A DNA stretch of 64,000 nt from Candidatus Firestoneibacteriota bacterium. GTDB lineage: Bacteria; Oederibacteriota; D2-FULL-39-29; JBBTED01. The position numbers were made by a program. The stretch covers positions 1 to 64,000 of the forward strand of contig JBBTED010000048.1 of assembly GCA_038042445.1 (NCBI GenBank), in the 5' to 3' direction. Position 1 is the stretch's first letter. Each line of letters begins with the position of its first letter. Below, piece by piece: positions 30,001-36,000 of the stretch.

Positions 30001-33000
30001 TGAAACTTCACCATAAAATACTATATGGAGATAATCCCTTTGAAAAATTAAGTATAGAGCTTGCTAATTTGCGTCATGAATGTGAATTTGAATTAAAGGG
30101 TAAATTCCTTAAATTACAACAAGCATATATATTAACAGGTGGCAAAGAAAATAAAGTTAAAGAATTACTTGTAGATTCAATTTCTACATTTTTAATTTTA
30201 TTTCGTGCTGTTATTTGTCTCACAGGTAAAACTCCACCGCCAAAAAGACTTGATGTCCTTACAAAGATTTCCGAATTCATAAATATAAACACTAAACCAT
30301 TTGTATCATTACTTGAGATAAAAGAAACCCCAAAATTAGCAAAAAAATTTAATATAGAAATTATTTTTGAAGAATACATAAAAGAGATTGAAAAAGTAAT
30401 AGATTTCGTGGATAATTATAATTAGTTCTAAGTGTATAAGTGCATAAGTTCTAAGTATTTATAAAACTTAGAACCTAGAACTTCGGCACATAGAACATAT
30501 TAAAGGAGGCAACAAAAATGAAGAAGTTATGGATAATATTAGGTGTAGTTTTAGTGTTTTTACTTATGCTTGTTGGAACCTATGTAAGCAATTACAACAG
30601 ACTTGTTAGAACAAGTGAAAGTATAAATAGTTCATGGGCACAGGTTGAAAACCAATTACAGAGAAGATTTGACTTAATTCCTAATTTGATAAATACAGTA
30701 AAAGGCTATGTAAAACATGAAAAAGGAATATTTGAGTATGTAGCAGATGCAAGAGCAAAATTAGCAGGTGCAAAAACAATAGCAGATAAAGTAAAATCAG
30801 CAAATGATTTAGAAACAGGGTTGTCCCGCTTACTTGCAATTGCTGAAAATTATCCACAGTTAAAAGCAAATGAAAACTTCATAAGACTTCAAGATGAGCT
30901 TGCAGGCACTGAAAACAGAATTGCCGTAGAAAGAATGAGATTCAATGAAATTGTACGTGATTATAATATTTTGATACGAAGATTCCCAAGCAATATCATA
31001 GCCTCAATGTCCGGCTTTGAGAAAAAAGATATATACTTTAAAGCAGAAGAAACTGCAAAAGAAACACCAAAAGTAAACTTTTAATTTTGATTTTAATTTT
31101 GCAAGAAATATATTGACAAAATTCATTAAAATTGTAACAATAATGAGAATTTAAATTAACTATGTTACCTACATATAGACCACATAATCGGAAAAGACAT
31201 AAAACTCATGGGTTTAAAAAAAGAATGAAAACCCATGGTGGAAAAAAAGTCCTTAATAGCCGCAGAAAAAAAGGGCGATATCGTATTTGTGTATAAAAAA
31301 ATTAACTCTTACACCATAAAACCATTAGTGTGAATGAGCAAGTTTCGGTGCAGGATTTTACTTTCTCGAAATCTGAACATCTAACCAAAAATGACGAATT
31401 CGATAAAATATATAAAGTAGGTAAACGATACTCTAATAAATTTTTCCTCTTAAATGTACTGGAAAAATCAAAAGTAGATACAAAATATTCACGAATAGGA
31501 TTTTCTGTAGGTAAAAAAATTGCTAAAGCAGTTTTAAGAAATAAACTTAAACGCAAAATGAGAGAAATTTTCAGAACAAATAAATACAAATTGATTAAAA
31601 AAACAGATTTGCTCCTTACAGCAAGACAATTGGCTTTATCTGCAGATTATAAAACATTAGAAACTGCTATATTAGACCTTTTTAAAAAATCAACGCTTAT
31701 TAACTAATGCTAAAGAAAATACTGATTGAAAGTATAAAGTTTTACCGTATGATGATATCACCTATTTTTCCACGAGCATGTAGATTTCATCCTTCTTGCT
31801 CTGAATATACAATTTTAGCAATAGAAAACTATGGTATCTTTGGTGGATGCTGGCTTTCTATAAAAAGAATACTTAAATGTCACCCATTTTCAAAAGGAGG
31901 ATTTGACCCCATACCATGCAAAAAAGATTAATAATTGCAATTGCAATGTCGTTTTTAGTATTGTTAGGTTTTGAATTTTATTATTCAAAAACTTTTGTTC
32001 CGCTTAAAAAACAACCAGTAGAACAAAATAGCATAGAAAAAACTAAAGATGTTTCTTCAACTCCTACAGCTTCTATTCCTGCAATTTCTACAGAAAAAAT
32101 TAAGCCACAAGAATTAAAAAGTTCTACAAAAAATCTGGAAAATGCAAAAGACATAGTGCTGGAAACAAAAAAAATACGAGCTACATTTACAAATAAAGGT
32201 GCAAAACTCAAAAGTTTTATTTTAAAAGAATTTAACGAAAACAAACAGCCCGTTGATCTTGTATCAAAAGAATTACAAGAAAATTTTCCGTTTAAATTAG
32301 AACTGGCAGGAAACAGTGATAATAAAATATGGGAAGTTACTGAAGAAAAAAATGGCGTTTCTTTTAAAACAAAAACCGGTGATTTAACTATAACAAAAAA
32401 GTTCCTATTTGATGATAATACATATAAAGTTAAATTAGATATAGAAGTTTTAAATCTTGGCAAAGAAAATCAGGAAATTAAAGATTTAACATTGTGGTGG
32501 GGACCTGGCATAATTGCAGACAAAAAAGACCTTCTTGAAATTTCAGCAGTAGTTTTTGCAAATAACAAAATAACAAAGTTTAAAGCCCATAAAATTGGAG
32601 AACCTAAAATTGTAAGTGGAAATATTTCCTGGATTGGACTAAAAGATAAGTATTTTATGGTAAATTTAGCCCCAGAAAATGATATTGCTCAATCCTGCAA
32701 AGTTGAACGCAATTCAGAAGGTAGACTTTCTATTGGTGTCCAATTAAAACCACTTGTTTTAGAAAAAAATGCAAAGAAAAATATTTCATTCGCATTGTAT
32801 ATGGGTCCTTTAATATTAGAAGAACTAAGACCACTCAACATTGGATTAGACAAAGCATTGGATTTTGGGATATTTTCCTGGCTTGGAATATGGTTCCTAA
32901 TCATCATGAAATTTTTATATAAAATAGTACCTAATTGGGGATTGGCTATAATTTTACTTACTGTTTTAATTAAGATTGTCCTGTGGATTCCAACTCAAAA

Positions 33001-36000
33001 AAGTTATAAATCAATGAAAATGATGCAAAATTTACAACCACAATTTAAAGTGTTGAAAGAGCAATATAAAAATGACCCGAAATTATTGAATCAACAAATG
33101 ATGAAGCTTTACAAAGAGAATAAAGTGAATCCTCTTGGAGGATGCTTGCCAATGTTATTGCAATTGCCTATATTCTATGCTTTATATACTATACTTACAA
33201 ATGCTATAGAACTTCGTTCTGCACCATTTATTTTCTGGATAACTGATCTCTCATTAAAAGACCCTTATTATGTATCAGCATTATTAATGGGTGTCACAAT
33301 GTTTATACAGCAAAAAATGACACCGGCAGCTGACCCACAACAGGCCAAAATAATGCTTGTGCTTCCTGTAATTTTTACAGTTATGTTTGCAGGATTACCA
33401 GCAGGTGTGCTTTTATACTGGATAATACAAAATATACTTTCAATAATTCAGCAGTATCATGTAAATCAATCTAATTAAATATGGGTATCCTAAGAAAAAA
33501 GAAGATTGTTGAAAAAAACTTGCCAAGCTTGACAGTGCCAAAAAGTAAAACAAAAATTAAAATTCCAGATAAAAAAGTGGAAACTCCATCAAATTTAAAT
33601 CCTATTGATGAAGCAAAACTAATAATAGAAAAAATTTTGGAGCTTGCTAATTTAGATGCAAAAGTAATAATAAAAAATGCTGACACAATTGAAGCAAGTG
33701 GAAAAGATTCTGCAATAATAATAGGCAGAAATGGCACAACGCTTTTTGCAATAGATACTCTATTAAATAGTATACTAAATAAAAATAAGGCAAATAAGAT
33801 AAAATTTGTTTTTGATGTAGAAGAATACAGACAAAGATATCCAAATAAAACTTTGCCTGTTAAAGGGCAAATAGATCAACATCCACTAAATCAAGCACCA
33901 CCCGCCCCCATAAATCCTTATAATCGTAATCCATATAATTCTTCTAATTATAATAAAAAAACTCCTTATTCCACTACAAATTACAATTATTACACCAAGA
34001 CTCAAAAACGTTCGTCTCTTAATCAAACGAATAATCTATACAAACCATACACTTCACCTTATCCTTCACCATACCGCCAAAACAACAATGGAAAATACAA
34101 TAGCAATAACTTGCCACAGAATAAACACTGATACTATTTGTGCAATTTCCACTCCTATTGGAGAAGGTGGAATTGGGATAGTAAGAATAAGTGGTGAAAA
34201 TTCTTTATCTATAGCCCAAAATATTTTTCTTAAAAAAGGTGCTTTTAAAATTGATGCCTTTAATTTACCTACTTTCACAACACACTATGGACACATAATT
34301 AACCCTGTTACCAAGCAAATAATAGACGAAGTTATTTTAACAGTAATGAAAGCACCACATACTTATACACGCGAAGATATTGTAGAAATTAACTGCCATG
34401 GAGGTGTTATTCCATTAAAATTAACTCTTGAACTCGCAATGAAATATGGAGCAAGACTTGCAGCACCTGGAGAATTTACAAAACGCGCATTTTTAAATGG
34501 AAGAATCGATTTATCACAAGCAGAAGCAGTAATAGATGTAATACGCGCCAAAACTGATATATCGTTAAACGCCAGTATTACACAACTAACTGGGAAATTA
34601 AAAAATGAAGTAGAAACACTACGTTCTAATTTAATTGATATGTGCGCTCAAATTGAGGCAGAAATTGATTTTCCAGAAGAAGAAATAGAAAATTTGGGTA
34701 TTGCTGAGTTCGAAAAGAATATTAAAAATATTTTAGAAAAAATATGTCGTTTGCTAAATAGTTTTCAAAGCGGCAAACTTTTACGAGAAGGAATTAAAAT
34801 TGCAATAATAGGAAAGCCAAATGTAGGAAAATCAAGTCTTTTAAATATTTTTTTAAATGAAGAGCGTGCAATAGTTACTGAAATTCCCGGAACTACACGT
34901 GATACAATTGAAGAATTTTTAAATATTGAAGGTATACCTGTAAAACTTATAGATACTGCAGGAATAAGAAAAACAGAAAACATTATTGAGAAAATCGGGG
35001 TTGACAAAAGCTATACATCTTTATCCCAGGCTGATTTAATATTTTTAATGTTGGATAGTTCTGCTGATTTAACCAACGAAGATGAGCATATATTAGAAAA
35101 AGTTCTTGGCAAAAAAGTATTAATTTTATTAAATAAAATTGATTTACCTAAAAAAATCAATATAGAAAAACTAAAAGAAAAAGCACACAAAATTACAAAA
35201 ATACTTGAAGTATCTGCAAAATACGGGATTGGTATTGATTTACTTAAAAAAGAAGTCTTGTCCATTGTTATGTCCGGTGAAGTAATAAATACCGGAGAGA
35301 TTTTAATAACAAATATCAGACATAAAGAGGTTTTGGAAAAATCAAAAAATTCATTGCTTCACGCCTACAATAGTTTTAAAAAAAATATGTCGCCAGAATT
35401 TATTGCACTTGATATACGCGCAAGCCTAAACCAGTTAGGTGAAATAACAGGCTCTGTTACAACAGAAGACATATTAAACAGAATTTTTGACCAATTCTGT
35501 ATCGGAAAATAATTAATCAATTTCATTTTCTTTTTCAAACAAGCTATATAAAGCAGGCAAAACAATCAAAGCTAAAAATCCTGAAGATACAAGTCCACTA
35601 AGCACTACAATTGCTAATGGCTTTTGTATTTCTGCGCCTGGACCAGTTGCCCAAAGTAAAGGAATCAAACCCAAAATTGCCACTAAACTGGTGAGAAGTA
35701 ATGGCCTTAATCTTATCTCACATGCTTGGACAATAGCTTTGTTTTTTGGCAATCCCCCTTTTCTTAATTGAATAATAAAAGCAACTAACACCACTCCATT
35801 TGCCACTGCAGTACCAAGTAAAACAAGAAACCCTATCACAGCAGACACACTTAAGGTAATTTTGAAAAGTAGCACTCCAAGAATTCCTCCTACCAAAGCA
35901 AAAGGCAAATTTAGCATAACAAGTAAAGCAGGCTTTAACGCACCAAAAGTATAAAGCAAAAGAACAAATATAAGAAAAATTACTATAGGTACAATTATAA

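Follow-up and report, generated by a model that had tools for sequence, protein, structure and literature searches.

Results

The yidC locus and the retained Sec machinery

The window, the whole stretch of DNA that was analysed, comprises positions 1 to 64,000 of contig JBBTED010000048.1 from a Candidatus Firestoneibacteriota bacterium (assembly GCA_038042445.1). The anchor locus of this work (window 31330-35512) carries the genes listed in Table 1.

Table 1. Genes of the anchor locus, with positions in the window
Gene	Product	Length (aa)	Position	Strand	Domain matches
rnpA	RNase P protein	125	31330..31707	+	PF00825 E=1.1e-26
yidD	Membrane protein insertion efficiency factor	74	31707..31931	+	PF01809 E=1.1e-29
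yidC	Membrane insertase	520	31916..33478	+	PF14849 E=4.8e-28, PF02096 E=4.3e-59
	KhpB/Jag-like KH-domain protein	216	33481..34131	+	PF13083 E=2.5e-6, below Pfam cut-off
mnmE	tRNA modification GTPase	474	34088..35512	+	PF12631 E=7e-61, PF10396 E=2.1e-41, PF01926 E=2.3e-27

The YidC encoded here is the only one in the genome and scores over the cut-offs of both TIGR03592 and TIGR03593. It has the YidC periplasmic domain (PF14849) and the 60KD_IMP core (PF02096). The core match ends at residue 517 of 520, three residues before the stop codon, so the protein has no ribosome-binding C-terminal tail. The KhpB/Jag-like assignment of the next gene rests partly on its position as the usual downstream neighbour of yidC. 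MnmE belongs to the TRAFAC GTPases, not to those of the SRP type.

SecYEG, SecA, YidC/YidD and trigger factor, with which the survey's finding had credited this genome, were all found, and YajC-SecDF is also kept. The genomes described here code for about 2400 mainly soluble proteins; the load of polytopic membrane proteins is normal (about 230 in this genome), and chemotaxis and pili genes are present.

Ffh, FtsY and SRP RNA were not detected in the genome

The genome (G000) is a metagenome-assembled genome (MAG) of 2.81 Mb, 90% complete, in 181 contigs. The best match to the SRP54-type G domain (PF00448) had E=0.004 (17.3 bits, for a cut-off of 22.7), the top matches being two AAA_22 ATPases on contig C33. 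The M domain of Ffh is methionine-rich and binds the signal peptide and SRP RNA; the best match to its model (PF02978, E=0.066, 15.1 bits, cut-off 27) lies inside a chemoreceptor coiled coil, and that to the N domain (PF02881, E=0.008, 18 bits, cut-off 22.4) inside a RuvX-like protein. The protein models were positive in 14 of 14 control genomes. Phylum-specific HMMs, made from 16 Ffh, 15 FtsY and the M-domain part, were run with hmmsearch --max on 14049 six-frame ORFs of at least 50 aa. Best E-values were 0.02 for Ffh, 0.0011 for FtsY and 2.4 for the M domain; the best matches were ParA (on which that of FtsY falls), ABC ATPases and PilT.

Covariance models were used to score SRP RNA, the defining feature being the domain IV helix and its conserved GGAA-loop core. 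The genome had no match at E<=10 to RF00169 or RF01854, nor to a phylum-specific model (R1) that recovered the held-out control G045 at E=4.5e-17. In four other SRP-less genomes the best R1 match (E=0.019) lies inside a coding ORF, without the motif, and was rejected. RNase P RNA was recovered from G000 at 269 bits, therefore small RNAs are recoverable from this bin. The earlier claim that this genome has no Ffh, FtsY or SRP RNA thus holds with Pfam, Rfam and phylum-specific models alike.

The ancestral gene positions are intact and lack SRP genes

In the phylum, ffh has a conserved position directly downstream of rlmN, a PASTA-like gene and rpe, and it lies directly 3' of rpe in 27 SRP-bearing genomes (families f8, f9 and f13-f23). 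The ftsY gene is downstream of smc, adjacent or one gene apart, in all 53 SRP-bearing genomes compared, and the SRP RNA gene is directly upstream of dnaX in 15 of 15 SRP-bearing loci. On contig C2 of G000, rpe (54960-55640) is followed after a 7 nt gap by a Crp-family regulator gene, without ffh; on the same contig, the genes beyond the end of smc (75877) are a convergent OMP gene and rsmD, not ftsY. On contig C27 an ORF of about 180 aa abuts dnaX and fills the space after tRNA-Ala, where no SRP RNA was found. All three positions are on unbroken contigs, in agreement with the survey's finding that the absence is not a gap of the bin. No pseudogene remnants were found at the ancestral positions of this genome; the deletion would be old, because no remnants are left.

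The other SRP-less genomes gave the same picture: Ffh was found 3' of rpe in none of 17 loci and FtsY 3' of smc in none of 20, and in a tblastn search over 39 SRP-less loci (145 kb) Ffh matched at E=0.065 at best and FtsY at E=0.047. Taking G000 and these loci together, the genes that now stand at the ancestral positions are those for a Crp-family regulator or a response regulator, yajC-secD, or rsmD with an OMP gene. At 9 of 10 loci of families f6 and f7, a conserved cluster stands where ftsY used to be; it encodes a BamB-like lipoprotein, a HAMP/cyclase membrane protein, a J-domain-TPR protein and a second Hsp70.

SRP is absent from 35 genomes in eight families

The census covered all 99 genomes of the phylum, which are all MAGs or assemblies. 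None of Ffh, FtsY and SRP RNA was found in 35 genomes from eight families (f1-f7 and f10), whereas each of the remaining 64 has at least one of the three. In these eight families, PF00448 matches of the Ffh/FtsY level (E<=4e-66) were found in 0 of 35 genomes versus 63 of 64 elsewhere, the M domain in 0 of 35 versus 59 of 64, and SRP RNA in 0 of 35 versus 55 of 64. The one SRP-bearing genome without an Ffh/FtsY-level match, G039 (76% complete), has an SRP RNA. Families that are sisters of the SRP-less lineages match PF00448 at E~1e-66 to 1e-76. Control genes were recovered from the 35 SRP-less genomes (SecY in 35, SMC in 33, YidC in 31, Rpe in 30). Completeness reaches 96% or more in 14 of them, the best-assembled are in 7-10 contigs, and with sizes of 1.7-4.7 Mb these genomes are not reduced. 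The census bears out the absence from all 12 other genomes of the class and from families f6 and f7, including G031, G032 and G022 (98-100% complete, 7-10 contigs), and extends it beyond what had been reported, to 35 genomes and eight families.

The survey's finding had also stated that other families of the phylum have Ffh and FtsY. This does not hold for f5 and f10, in which Ffh, FtsY and SRP RNA are absent and the paralogue FlhF is the only SRP-type GTPase kept. It was found by PF00448 at E~1e-42 to 1e-44. These single matches have the properties of FlhF (TIGR03499 match, N-terminal B domain, flhA neighbour): TIGR03499 gives 196 bits in G001 and 218 bits in G040 (cut-off 174), neither protein comes anywhere near the cut-offs for ffh and ftsY, and in G040 the gene comes after an FlhA C-terminus. 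As FlhF is still detectable in f5 and f10, the SRP-type GTPases of these lineages have not diverged beyond recognition.

SRP was likely lost more than once

The phylogeny rests on a single linked locus, the ribosomal operons, from which 27 genes were used. The unconstrained tree needs four changes of SRP status, and its well-supported branches force at least two. Holding the SRP-less rows together cost 148.7 lnL under LG+F+G4 (4621 columns; AU test in iqtree2, p=3e-5) and 40.7 lnL under the site-heterogeneous PMSF model (2327 columns, p=0.014); the two tests differ in strength, the better model giving p=0.014 only. Support for the deep backbone is poor, with 12 of 38 inner branches unsupported; f5 and f10 sit on long branches, and between 9 and 14 rows did not pass the composition test. 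A single group of SRP-less families is thus rejected by the tree, which makes at least two losses more likely, and the idea of a whole clade without SRP, implying a single loss, did not hold. In SRP-bearing families f8, f9 and f13 all three genes are still at their ancestral positions, which argues against loss followed by regain. We consider it likely that SRP was lost more than once, and the most likely history is at least two independent losses within one deep branch of the phylum (f1-f13).

Search for a compensating feature

Known compensations for SRP loss are a second YidC paralogue and a long basic extension of YidC beyond its last transmembrane helix, the ribosome-binding tail of YidC2/Oxa1-type insertases. 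No second YidC paralogue was found, SRP-less and SRP-bearing genomes alike having one YidC per genome. Of 11 SRP-less YidCs sampled, 10 have tails of only 0-5 residues (for the eleventh, from G001, the choice of ORF is doubtful, the genome being rich in GC), compared with 0-12 residues in 10 SRP-bearing YidCs. A Tim44/Mba1-like domain (PF04280, as in receptors of the Mba1/mL45 type) was present in 0 of 35 SRP-less and 4 of 64 SRP-bearing genomes. No SecY substitutions tracking SRP status were found, and a scan for methionine-rich segments gave nothing convincing.

Some lineage-specific features were observed. Ribosomal proteins uL22 and bL17 are located near the tunnel exit. In f2-f4 (146-163 aa) and f10 (178 aa), uL22 has a K/A-rich C-terminal extension, compared with 114-134 aa for uL22 elsewhere and a normal uL22 in f5, and in f6 and f7 bL17 carries a K/E-rich tail of about 110 aa (total 238-262 aa); in SRP-bearing families, too, bL17 can have a tail, of 40-60 aa. 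Seven f6/f7 genomes have a second SecY-like domain.

Discussion

We conclude with high confidence that the loss of SRP is real in these lineages. Slightly less firmly, but still as a probable account, we propose that the SRP system was deleted in 35 genomes of eight families, most likely at least twice. Ffh, the receptor FtsY and the 4.5S-type SRP RNA would all have been deleted in this organism and in 34 other genomes, and no dedicated cycle of targeting GTPases would be involved in bringing membrane proteins to SecYEG/YidC. Translating ribosomes may bind SecYEG/YidC directly, SecA may recognise its substrates co-translationally, mRNAs for hydrophobic proteins may localise to the membrane independently of translation, and slow translation may give a long time window for targeting. 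All four are known back-ups of SRP in laboratory strains, and we consider them the likely routes. Excerpts of two articles describe the survival of Escherichia coli that lacks SRP but initiates translation more slowly (PMC7844537) and SRP-independent insertion through mRNA targeting to SecYEG/YidC (PMC10066597). We lean, by a small measure, towards the view that such existing factors suffice without a new dedicated one.

An artefact of binning or assembly, in which SRP genes would sit on contigs systematically missing from the bins, deserves attention, given the fragmentation of our own bin, the MAG origin of all the genomes and the frequency with which small RNA genes are left unassembled. 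It would have to have removed three unlinked loci from 35 of 35 genomes in which four control genes were recovered in 129 of 140 cases, 14 of these genomes being nearly complete and three in 7-10 contigs; furthermore, the ancestral positions are contiguous without SRP genes in G000 and at the 17 rpe and 20 smc loci. We regard this explanation as extremely improbable. Hardly more probable is that these genomes do contain Ffh, FtsY and SRP RNA, in forms that have diverged too far for the Pfam, Rfam and phylum-specific models to recognise. Sequence models can miss extreme divergence, and the SRP RNAs of f8, f9, f11 and f13, the SRP-bearing families nearest to the SRP-less ones in trees, score lowest in the phylum (48-57 bits). 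However, FlhF, the most divergent member of the GTPase family, is readily found in SRP-less f5 and f10, the proteins of sister families match strongly, and the phylum-specific HMMs and covariance model were negative. The three ancestral positions are occupied by unrelated, recognisable genes, and extreme divergence would be needed for three unlinked parts, in several lineages.

SRP could also have been lost and replaced by a dedicated, non-homologous targeting factor that family models do not see, such as a new protein that binds signal sequences or a tether between ribosome and membrane. Parallel losses confined to f1-f13 suggest that a feature of this branch made SRP dispensable, and the basic tails of uL22 and bL17, the conserved Hsp70 cluster of f6 and f7 and their second SecY-like domain are consistent with such a factor. 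Nevertheless, no candidate is common to all SRP-less lineages: uL22 is normal in f5, SRP-bearing families have bL17 tails too, only f6 and f7 show the Hsp70 cluster and the additional SecY, and YidC, SecY, the Tim44/Mba1-like domain and the methionine-rich scan gave nothing in its favour. We therefore consider a dedicated replacement unlikely. Somewhat less doubtful, but still tentative, is the idea that SRP was discarded several times in one branch whose ancestor already had another route from ribosome or mRNA to SecYEG/YidC, candidates for which would be the basic tails of the tunnel-exit ribosomal proteins or an unrecognised targeting factor. If true, this ancestral route would be a second, undescribed general solution to co-translational targeting in full-sized proteomes.

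Both ffh and ftsY commonly serve as universal markers. Estimates of completeness and marker-gene phylogenies that take their presence for granted will misjudge these lineages. We found no earlier report of SRP loss in these lineages in the literature, and an excerpt of one article describes SRP as conserved across all living organisms (PMC7844537). The minimum needed for co-translational membrane targeting, and whether SRP is essential or a mere accelerator, become directly testable. Natural sets of SecYEG, YidC and SecA and ribosomes adapted to SRP-free life are also now at hand.

In Streptococcus mutans, survival without SRP is linked to a second YidC paralogue, YidC2, which has a ribosome-binding tail, whereas the lineages described here have a single, tail-less YidC. 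S. mutans is viable without ffh, ftsY or the small cytoplasmic RNA (PMC8546722 and PMC7844537, in excerpt); these are laboratory deletions in a species that naturally keeps SRP, whereas the present loss is natural and lineage-wide. SRP-null strains of E. coli with translation-initiation suppressors show that SecYEG/YidC-dependent biogenesis is possible without SRP when the targeting window is longer (PMC7844537, in excerpt), and membrane-bound mRNAs likewise bypass SRP (PMC10066597, in excerpt). These strains differ in being engineered or selected, with fitness costs.

The natural SRP losses known to us are confined to mitochondria and to tiny endosymbionts that depend on a host; in either case, hardly anything is left of the proteome that needs sorting. 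The genomes of Carsonella and Portiera are tiny. The mitochondria of most eukaryotes have lost the bacterial-type SRP, repeatedly across lineages (PMC8321541, in excerpt), and share with our genomes a translation and insertion machinery of bacterial lineage that works with YidC/Oxa1 and without Ffh, FtsY and SRP RNA. However, mitochondria make a handful of proteins, nearly all membrane proteins, compared with about 2400 mostly soluble ones here, and their ribosomes are tethered via the Oxa1 C-tail, Mba1/mL45, Mdm38 and Mrx15, whereas YidC here is tail-less and the Tim44/Mba1-like domain was not found in the 35 genomes.

Carsonella and Portiera, extremely reduced insect endosymbionts, are natural genomes without ffh and ftsY: in the excerpt of the article concerned, ftsY, ffh and secE are all still present in Evansia, Portiera has no more than secE and lspA in common with it, and Carsonella appears, though this is not stated outright, to share none of Evansia's ftsY, ffh and secE (PMC4122945). 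These endosymbionts depend on a host, and most of their Sec system and membrane proteins are gone. In contrast, the lineages described here are bacteria with genomes of 1.7-4.7 Mb, complete SecYEG/SecA/YidC/SecDF, chemotaxis and pili genes and hundreds of polytopic proteins (about 230 in G000), which live without SRP and apparently reached this state more than once.

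Absence of SRP components from the genome

Searches of the six-frame translation of the genome (181 contigs totalling 2,812,258 bases; completeness 90.2%, contamination 2.2%) with the Pfam models of the SRP54-type GTPase domain (PF00448), the M domain (PF02978) and the N domain (PF02881) gave no match over the cut-offs, and all three domains were detected in 14/14 control genomes. The weak PF00448 matches were to two PEP-CTERM-associated-type AAA_22 ATPases on contig C33 and were rejected as a divergent SRP GTPase; the weak PF02978 and PF02881 matches, to a chemoreceptor and a RuvX-like protein respectively, were rejected similarly. 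Phylum-specific profiles built from 16 Ffh proteins, 15 FtsY proteins and the M-domain part were searched, with filters off, against the complete set of six-frame ORFs not shorter than 50 aa (14049 ORFs). The best E-values were 0.02, 0.0011 and 2.4 respectively, and the matches were rejected as SRP parts, the proteins being ParA, ABC-transporter ATPases and PilT-type ATPases.

The small and large SRP RNA models (RF00169 and RF01854) gave zero matches at E<=10, as did R1, a covariance model made from an alignment (A1) of 20 SRP RNAs from 13 families of the phylum. R1 recovered the SRP RNA of a genome held out of the model (E=4.5e-17). RNase P RNA scored 269 bits in the genome studied here; therefore, the bin has no general lack of small RNA genes. 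An R1 match in the SRP-less relative G006 (E=0.019) was rejected as a relic SRP RNA, because the GGAA core is lacking and the matched stretch is part of a beta-propeller ORF (478 aa). The survey's finding that Ffh, FtsY and SRP RNA are absent from this genome was thus confirmed with Pfam, Rfam and phylum-specific models, controls being detected.

The two AAA_22 ATPases of C33 are paralogues (L001 and L002 in the Table). They resemble XrtA/PEP-CTERM-associated ATPases (TIGR03015, 181 bits, under its cut-off), and orthologues were found across the class and in family f10.

The yidC region, which served as an anchor for the genome-wide absence claim, is itself ordinary: rnpA-yidD-yidC-jag-mnmE form an operon in the usual order (window 31330-35512). 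In a sequence search with YidC the nearest relatives were merely 32-51% identical, all from other phyla.

Ancestral positions of the SRP genes

The three SRP genes have conserved neighbours in the phylum. The ffh gene lies directly 3' of rlmN, a PASTA-like gene and rpe in at least 27 SRP-bearing genomes (f8, f9, f13-f23); ffh and rpe are separated by one gene in f11 and by 8-24 kb in the three f12 genomes compared, as judged from match coordinates among the matches listed, in which not every genome is comparable. The ftsY gene is downstream of smc, adjoining or one gene off, in 53/53 SRP-bearing genomes compared, and the SRP RNA gene is immediately 5' of dnaX-ybaB-recR in 15/15 loci fetched. 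In the genome studied here, all three positions are on unbroken contigs (C2, C2 and C27) and other genes occupy them (Table). Ffh was found after rpe in 0/17 SRP-less loci and FtsY after smc in 0/20. Directly after rpe, f2-f4 have yajC-secD (L181, L182, L188, L191 and L209, from G017, G015, G014, G011 and G006 respectively) and f6/f7 a convergent response regulator; a Crp-family regulator, not yajC-secD, is present in our genome (f1).

To look for pseudogene remnants, tblastn was run on 39 SRP-less loci (145 kb) with the full set of Ffh and FtsY sequences as queries, one query whose frame includes the smc end being set aside. None was found at the old ffh and ftsY places (best E: Ffh 0.065, FtsY 0.047). 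Matches down to E=8e-10 all came from the single query carrying the smc end, fell on smc and were rejected as remnants. The absence of remnants and the presence of other genes at the ancestral positions indicate that the losses are old and clean. SRP absence is therefore not an assembly gap, as the survey had argued: the ancestral positions are on unbroken contigs, and the four control genes were detected 129 times of a possible 140 in the SRP-less genomes described below.

Some of these loci have peculiarities of their own. On C27 (C27:92974-96048), recR follows dnaX (618 aa) immediately, without the separate ybaB ORF that most of the 15 loci from relatives have between the two genes. The ORF upstream of dnaX has an N-terminal Cys-rich motif and, by eye only, a PilZ-like look. 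In L019 (G037:C70:1-2654), the FtsY frame (473 aa) starts with about 90 residues matching the SMC C-terminal end; in this genome the two genes possibly share one frame, by fusion or overlap.

Extent of the absence in the phylum

The census covered all 99 genomes of the phylum, not a sample, all of them MAGs. Thirty-five genomes have none of the three SRP parts (M domain 0/35, SRP RNA 0/35, PF00448 match of Ffh/FtsY level 0/35): 13 of the class studied here (f1-f4), 5 of f5, 4 of f6, 11 of f7 and 2 of f10. Their sizes range from 1.7 to 4.7 Mb; completeness is at least 96% in 14/35, and three of them (G031, G032 and G022) consist of 7-10 contigs at a completeness of 98-100%. The control genes recovered in these 35 genomes were SecY (35), SMC (33), YidC (31) and Rpe (30). 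In the remaining genomes, the M domain was detected in 59/64, SRP RNA in 55/64 and NG-domain matches at E<=4e-66 in 63/64, the sole exception to the last (G039, 76% complete) having an SRP RNA. Misses among the 64 were mostly in 61-89% complete genomes; the M domain was also missed in G046 (90%).

The lone strong PF00448 match of f5 and f10 (E~1e-41 to 1e-44) lies in frames of 403-472 aa that encode FlhF, an SRP-type GTPase paralogue: TIGR03499 scored 196 and 218 bits (cut-off 174), scores were far under the ffh and ftsY cut-offs, the FlhF-type N-terminus is present, and in G040 the gene comes after flhA. Therefore f5 and f10, which the survey had counted as having SRP-type GTPases, are also SRP-less. 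Their FlhF demonstrates that SRP-type GTPases of these lineages are still easily recognised. The absence described by the survey was thus upheld and widened to 35 genomes, and its six families become eight (f1-f7 and f10).

One loss or several

A tree was made from the S10-spc-alpha ribosomal operon, one linked locus, of 40 genomes, with each of the 23 families represented, together with our contig C115 (27 genes, 4621 columns). With both FastTree and IQ-TREE (LG+F+G4), (f6,f7) was sister to the SRP-bearing (f8,f9), f10 stood beside the SRP-bearing (f11,f12), f1-f4 and f5 were separate, and f14-f23, all SRP-bearing, formed a distinct deep group. Under LG+C20+F+G4 (PMSF, 2327 columns), the backbone was mostly unresolved; four changes were needed, and well-supported branches force at least two. 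Constraining the 19 SRP-less rows to one group cost 40.7 log-likelihood units under PMSF (AU p=0.014; 2327 columns, iqtree2), and 148.7 units with all columns under LG+F+G4 (AU p=3e-5). The SRP-bearing f8, f9 and f13, which are inside the mixed branch, share with the distant f14-f23 all three ancestral positions of ffh, ftsY and the RNA gene; regain by transfer is therefore unlikely, and the pattern is better read as repeated loss.

SRP was therefore probably lost more than once. In the tree f5 and f10 are long branches, and 9-14 rows fail the composition test. A lengthening of uL3 by about 35-40 aa is shared by f2, f3, f5 and f10 and hints that f10 possibly belongs with f1-f5; the number of losses would then be two, not three or four. 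The survey's interpretation was right in substance, with three changes: the families number eight, those with FlhF alone are among them, and SRP was probably lost repeatedly.

Remaining components and search for compensation

The genome retains SecY, SecA (a 900-aa frame), trigger factor, YidC and YidD. By a crude hydrophobicity count, 230/2445 ORF-genes have at least four hydrophobic 19-mers and 105 have at least eight, which is an ordinary load of polytopic membrane proteins. There is no second YidC, the protein being single-copy across the phylum. No Oxa1-like YidC tail was seen: 0-5 residues follow at the C-terminus in 10/11 SRP-less lineages sampled vs. 0-12 in 10 SRP-bearing ones, and the longest, lysine-rich tails belong to the SRP-bearing f11/f12. 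Tim44/Mba1-like domains were found in 0/35 SRP-less genomes. No SecY substitution tracked SRP status; relaxed or convergent SecY positions were rejected, as the columns separate f1-f13 from f14-f23 instead. A scan for a methionine-rich protein as new signal binder gave nothing convincing.

A non-homologous replacement may have taken over from SRP, and several lineage-specific features are candidate leads. In loci L120-L159, uL22 has a basic low-complexity C-terminal extension (whole protein 146-163 aa in f2-f4, 178 aa in f10 and 114-134 aa in the other families) and bL17 a basic tail in f6/f7 (whole protein 238-262 aa vs. 121-199 aa elsewhere); both proteins border the ribosomal tunnel exit. 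At the old ftsY position, downstream of smc, 9/10 f6/f7 loci have a conserved cluster that includes an Hsp70 (Table). In seven f6/f7 genomes, giant frames of up to 13678 aa include a second SecY-like domain of full length (E 1e-25 to 1e-49); in the 9654-aa frame of G018 it spans residues 169-497, and the other ~9100 residues have no Pfam match. Giant proteins with SecA-like domains have been described, SecY being mentioned only as the separate SecYEG channel in the available part of that source (10.1101/2023.11.21.568195). None of these features (uL22/bL17 extensions, Hsp70 cluster, second SecY) is common to all SRP-less lineages.

Four further frames, 431-542 aa long, have a partial SecY-like match that covers only model positions 1 to ~230 (E 1e-19 to 1e-24); three of these frames belong to SRP-bearing f12 genomes.

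Table. Positions of the features discussed
Feature	Position	Size	Remarks
RnpA	window 31330-31707
YidD	window 31707-31931
YidC	window 31916-33478	520 aa	periplasmic domain and 60KD_IMP core, core end at residue 517
KhpB/Jag-like protein	window 33481-34131
MnmE	window 34088-35512
rpe (ffh position)	C2 54960-55640		minus strand; then Crp-family regulator after 7 nt
smc end (ftsY position)	C2 75877		then convergent outer-membrane beta-barrel gene and rsmD
dnaX position (SRP RNA position)	C27	~180 aa	ORF occupies gap between tRNA-Ala(CGC) and dnaX
AAA_22 ATPase	C33:36625-37551	308 aa	L001
AAA_22 ATPase	C33:19222-20064	280 aa	L002
Cluster at f6/f7 ftsY position	L274:1-4776 = G031:C1:969500-974400		also L275-L277, L262-L266
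Cluster: BamB-like beta-propeller lipoprotein		~475 aa
Cluster: membrane protein		~490-517 aa	HAMP and cyclase-like domains
Cluster: J-domain and TPR protein		~180 aa
Cluster: Hsp70		~563 aa
Cluster: MshE-like secretion ATPase
Second SecY-like	G018:C8:54985-83949		L284, L286
Second SecY-like	G029:C1:66144-67079
Second SecY-like	G021:C6:246569-247504
Second SecY-like	G026:C19:26722-27651
Second SecY-like	G024:C62
Second SecY-like	G028:C13
Second SecY-like	G030:C297
Partial SecY-like	G070:C13:10464-11186
Partial SecY-like	G052:C59:13183-13953
Partial SecY-like	G051:C33:45737-46501
Partial SecY-like	G028:C115:4176-4868

Proposed routes of membrane targeting without SRP and comparison with known systems

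The SRP genes are gone, and the translocon, the insertase, the motor and the ribosome-associated chaperone remain. Ribosome-nascent chain complexes would reach SecYEG/YidC without a targeting GTPase cycle, via the back-up routes of model bacteria. Co-translational SecA action and direct ribosome-translocon affinity are candidate SRP-free routes that could operate here. Slowed translation, giving a longer targeting window, is another candidate: E. coli is reported to survive complete SRP loss when two initiation factors or a ribosomal protein are mutated, with this effect (PMC7844537). mRNAs might also be held at the membrane, since SecYEG and YidC are described as able to anchor mRNAs whose products insert SRP-independently (PMC10066597). 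The data of this analysis favour no one route over the others.

Literature searches aimed at the question, which covered few subscription journals and were not run under the phylum name, gave no report of a bacterial lineage with unreduced genomes that has lost SRP naturally. In mitochondria, SRP was lost and ribosomes are described as tethered by the Oxa1 tail and Mba1/mL45 (PMC8321541). The other near cases are the SRP mutants of S. mutans (PMC8546722), the E. coli suppressor strains (PMC7844537) and tiny endosymbionts such as Carsonella and Portiera (PMC4122945). The compensations of mitochondria and streptococci are missing in the SRP-less families. The loss in these families also differs from all four known cases in being natural, lineage-wide and probably recurrent, and in affecting genomes that measure 1.7-4.7 Mb and retain the full Sec system.
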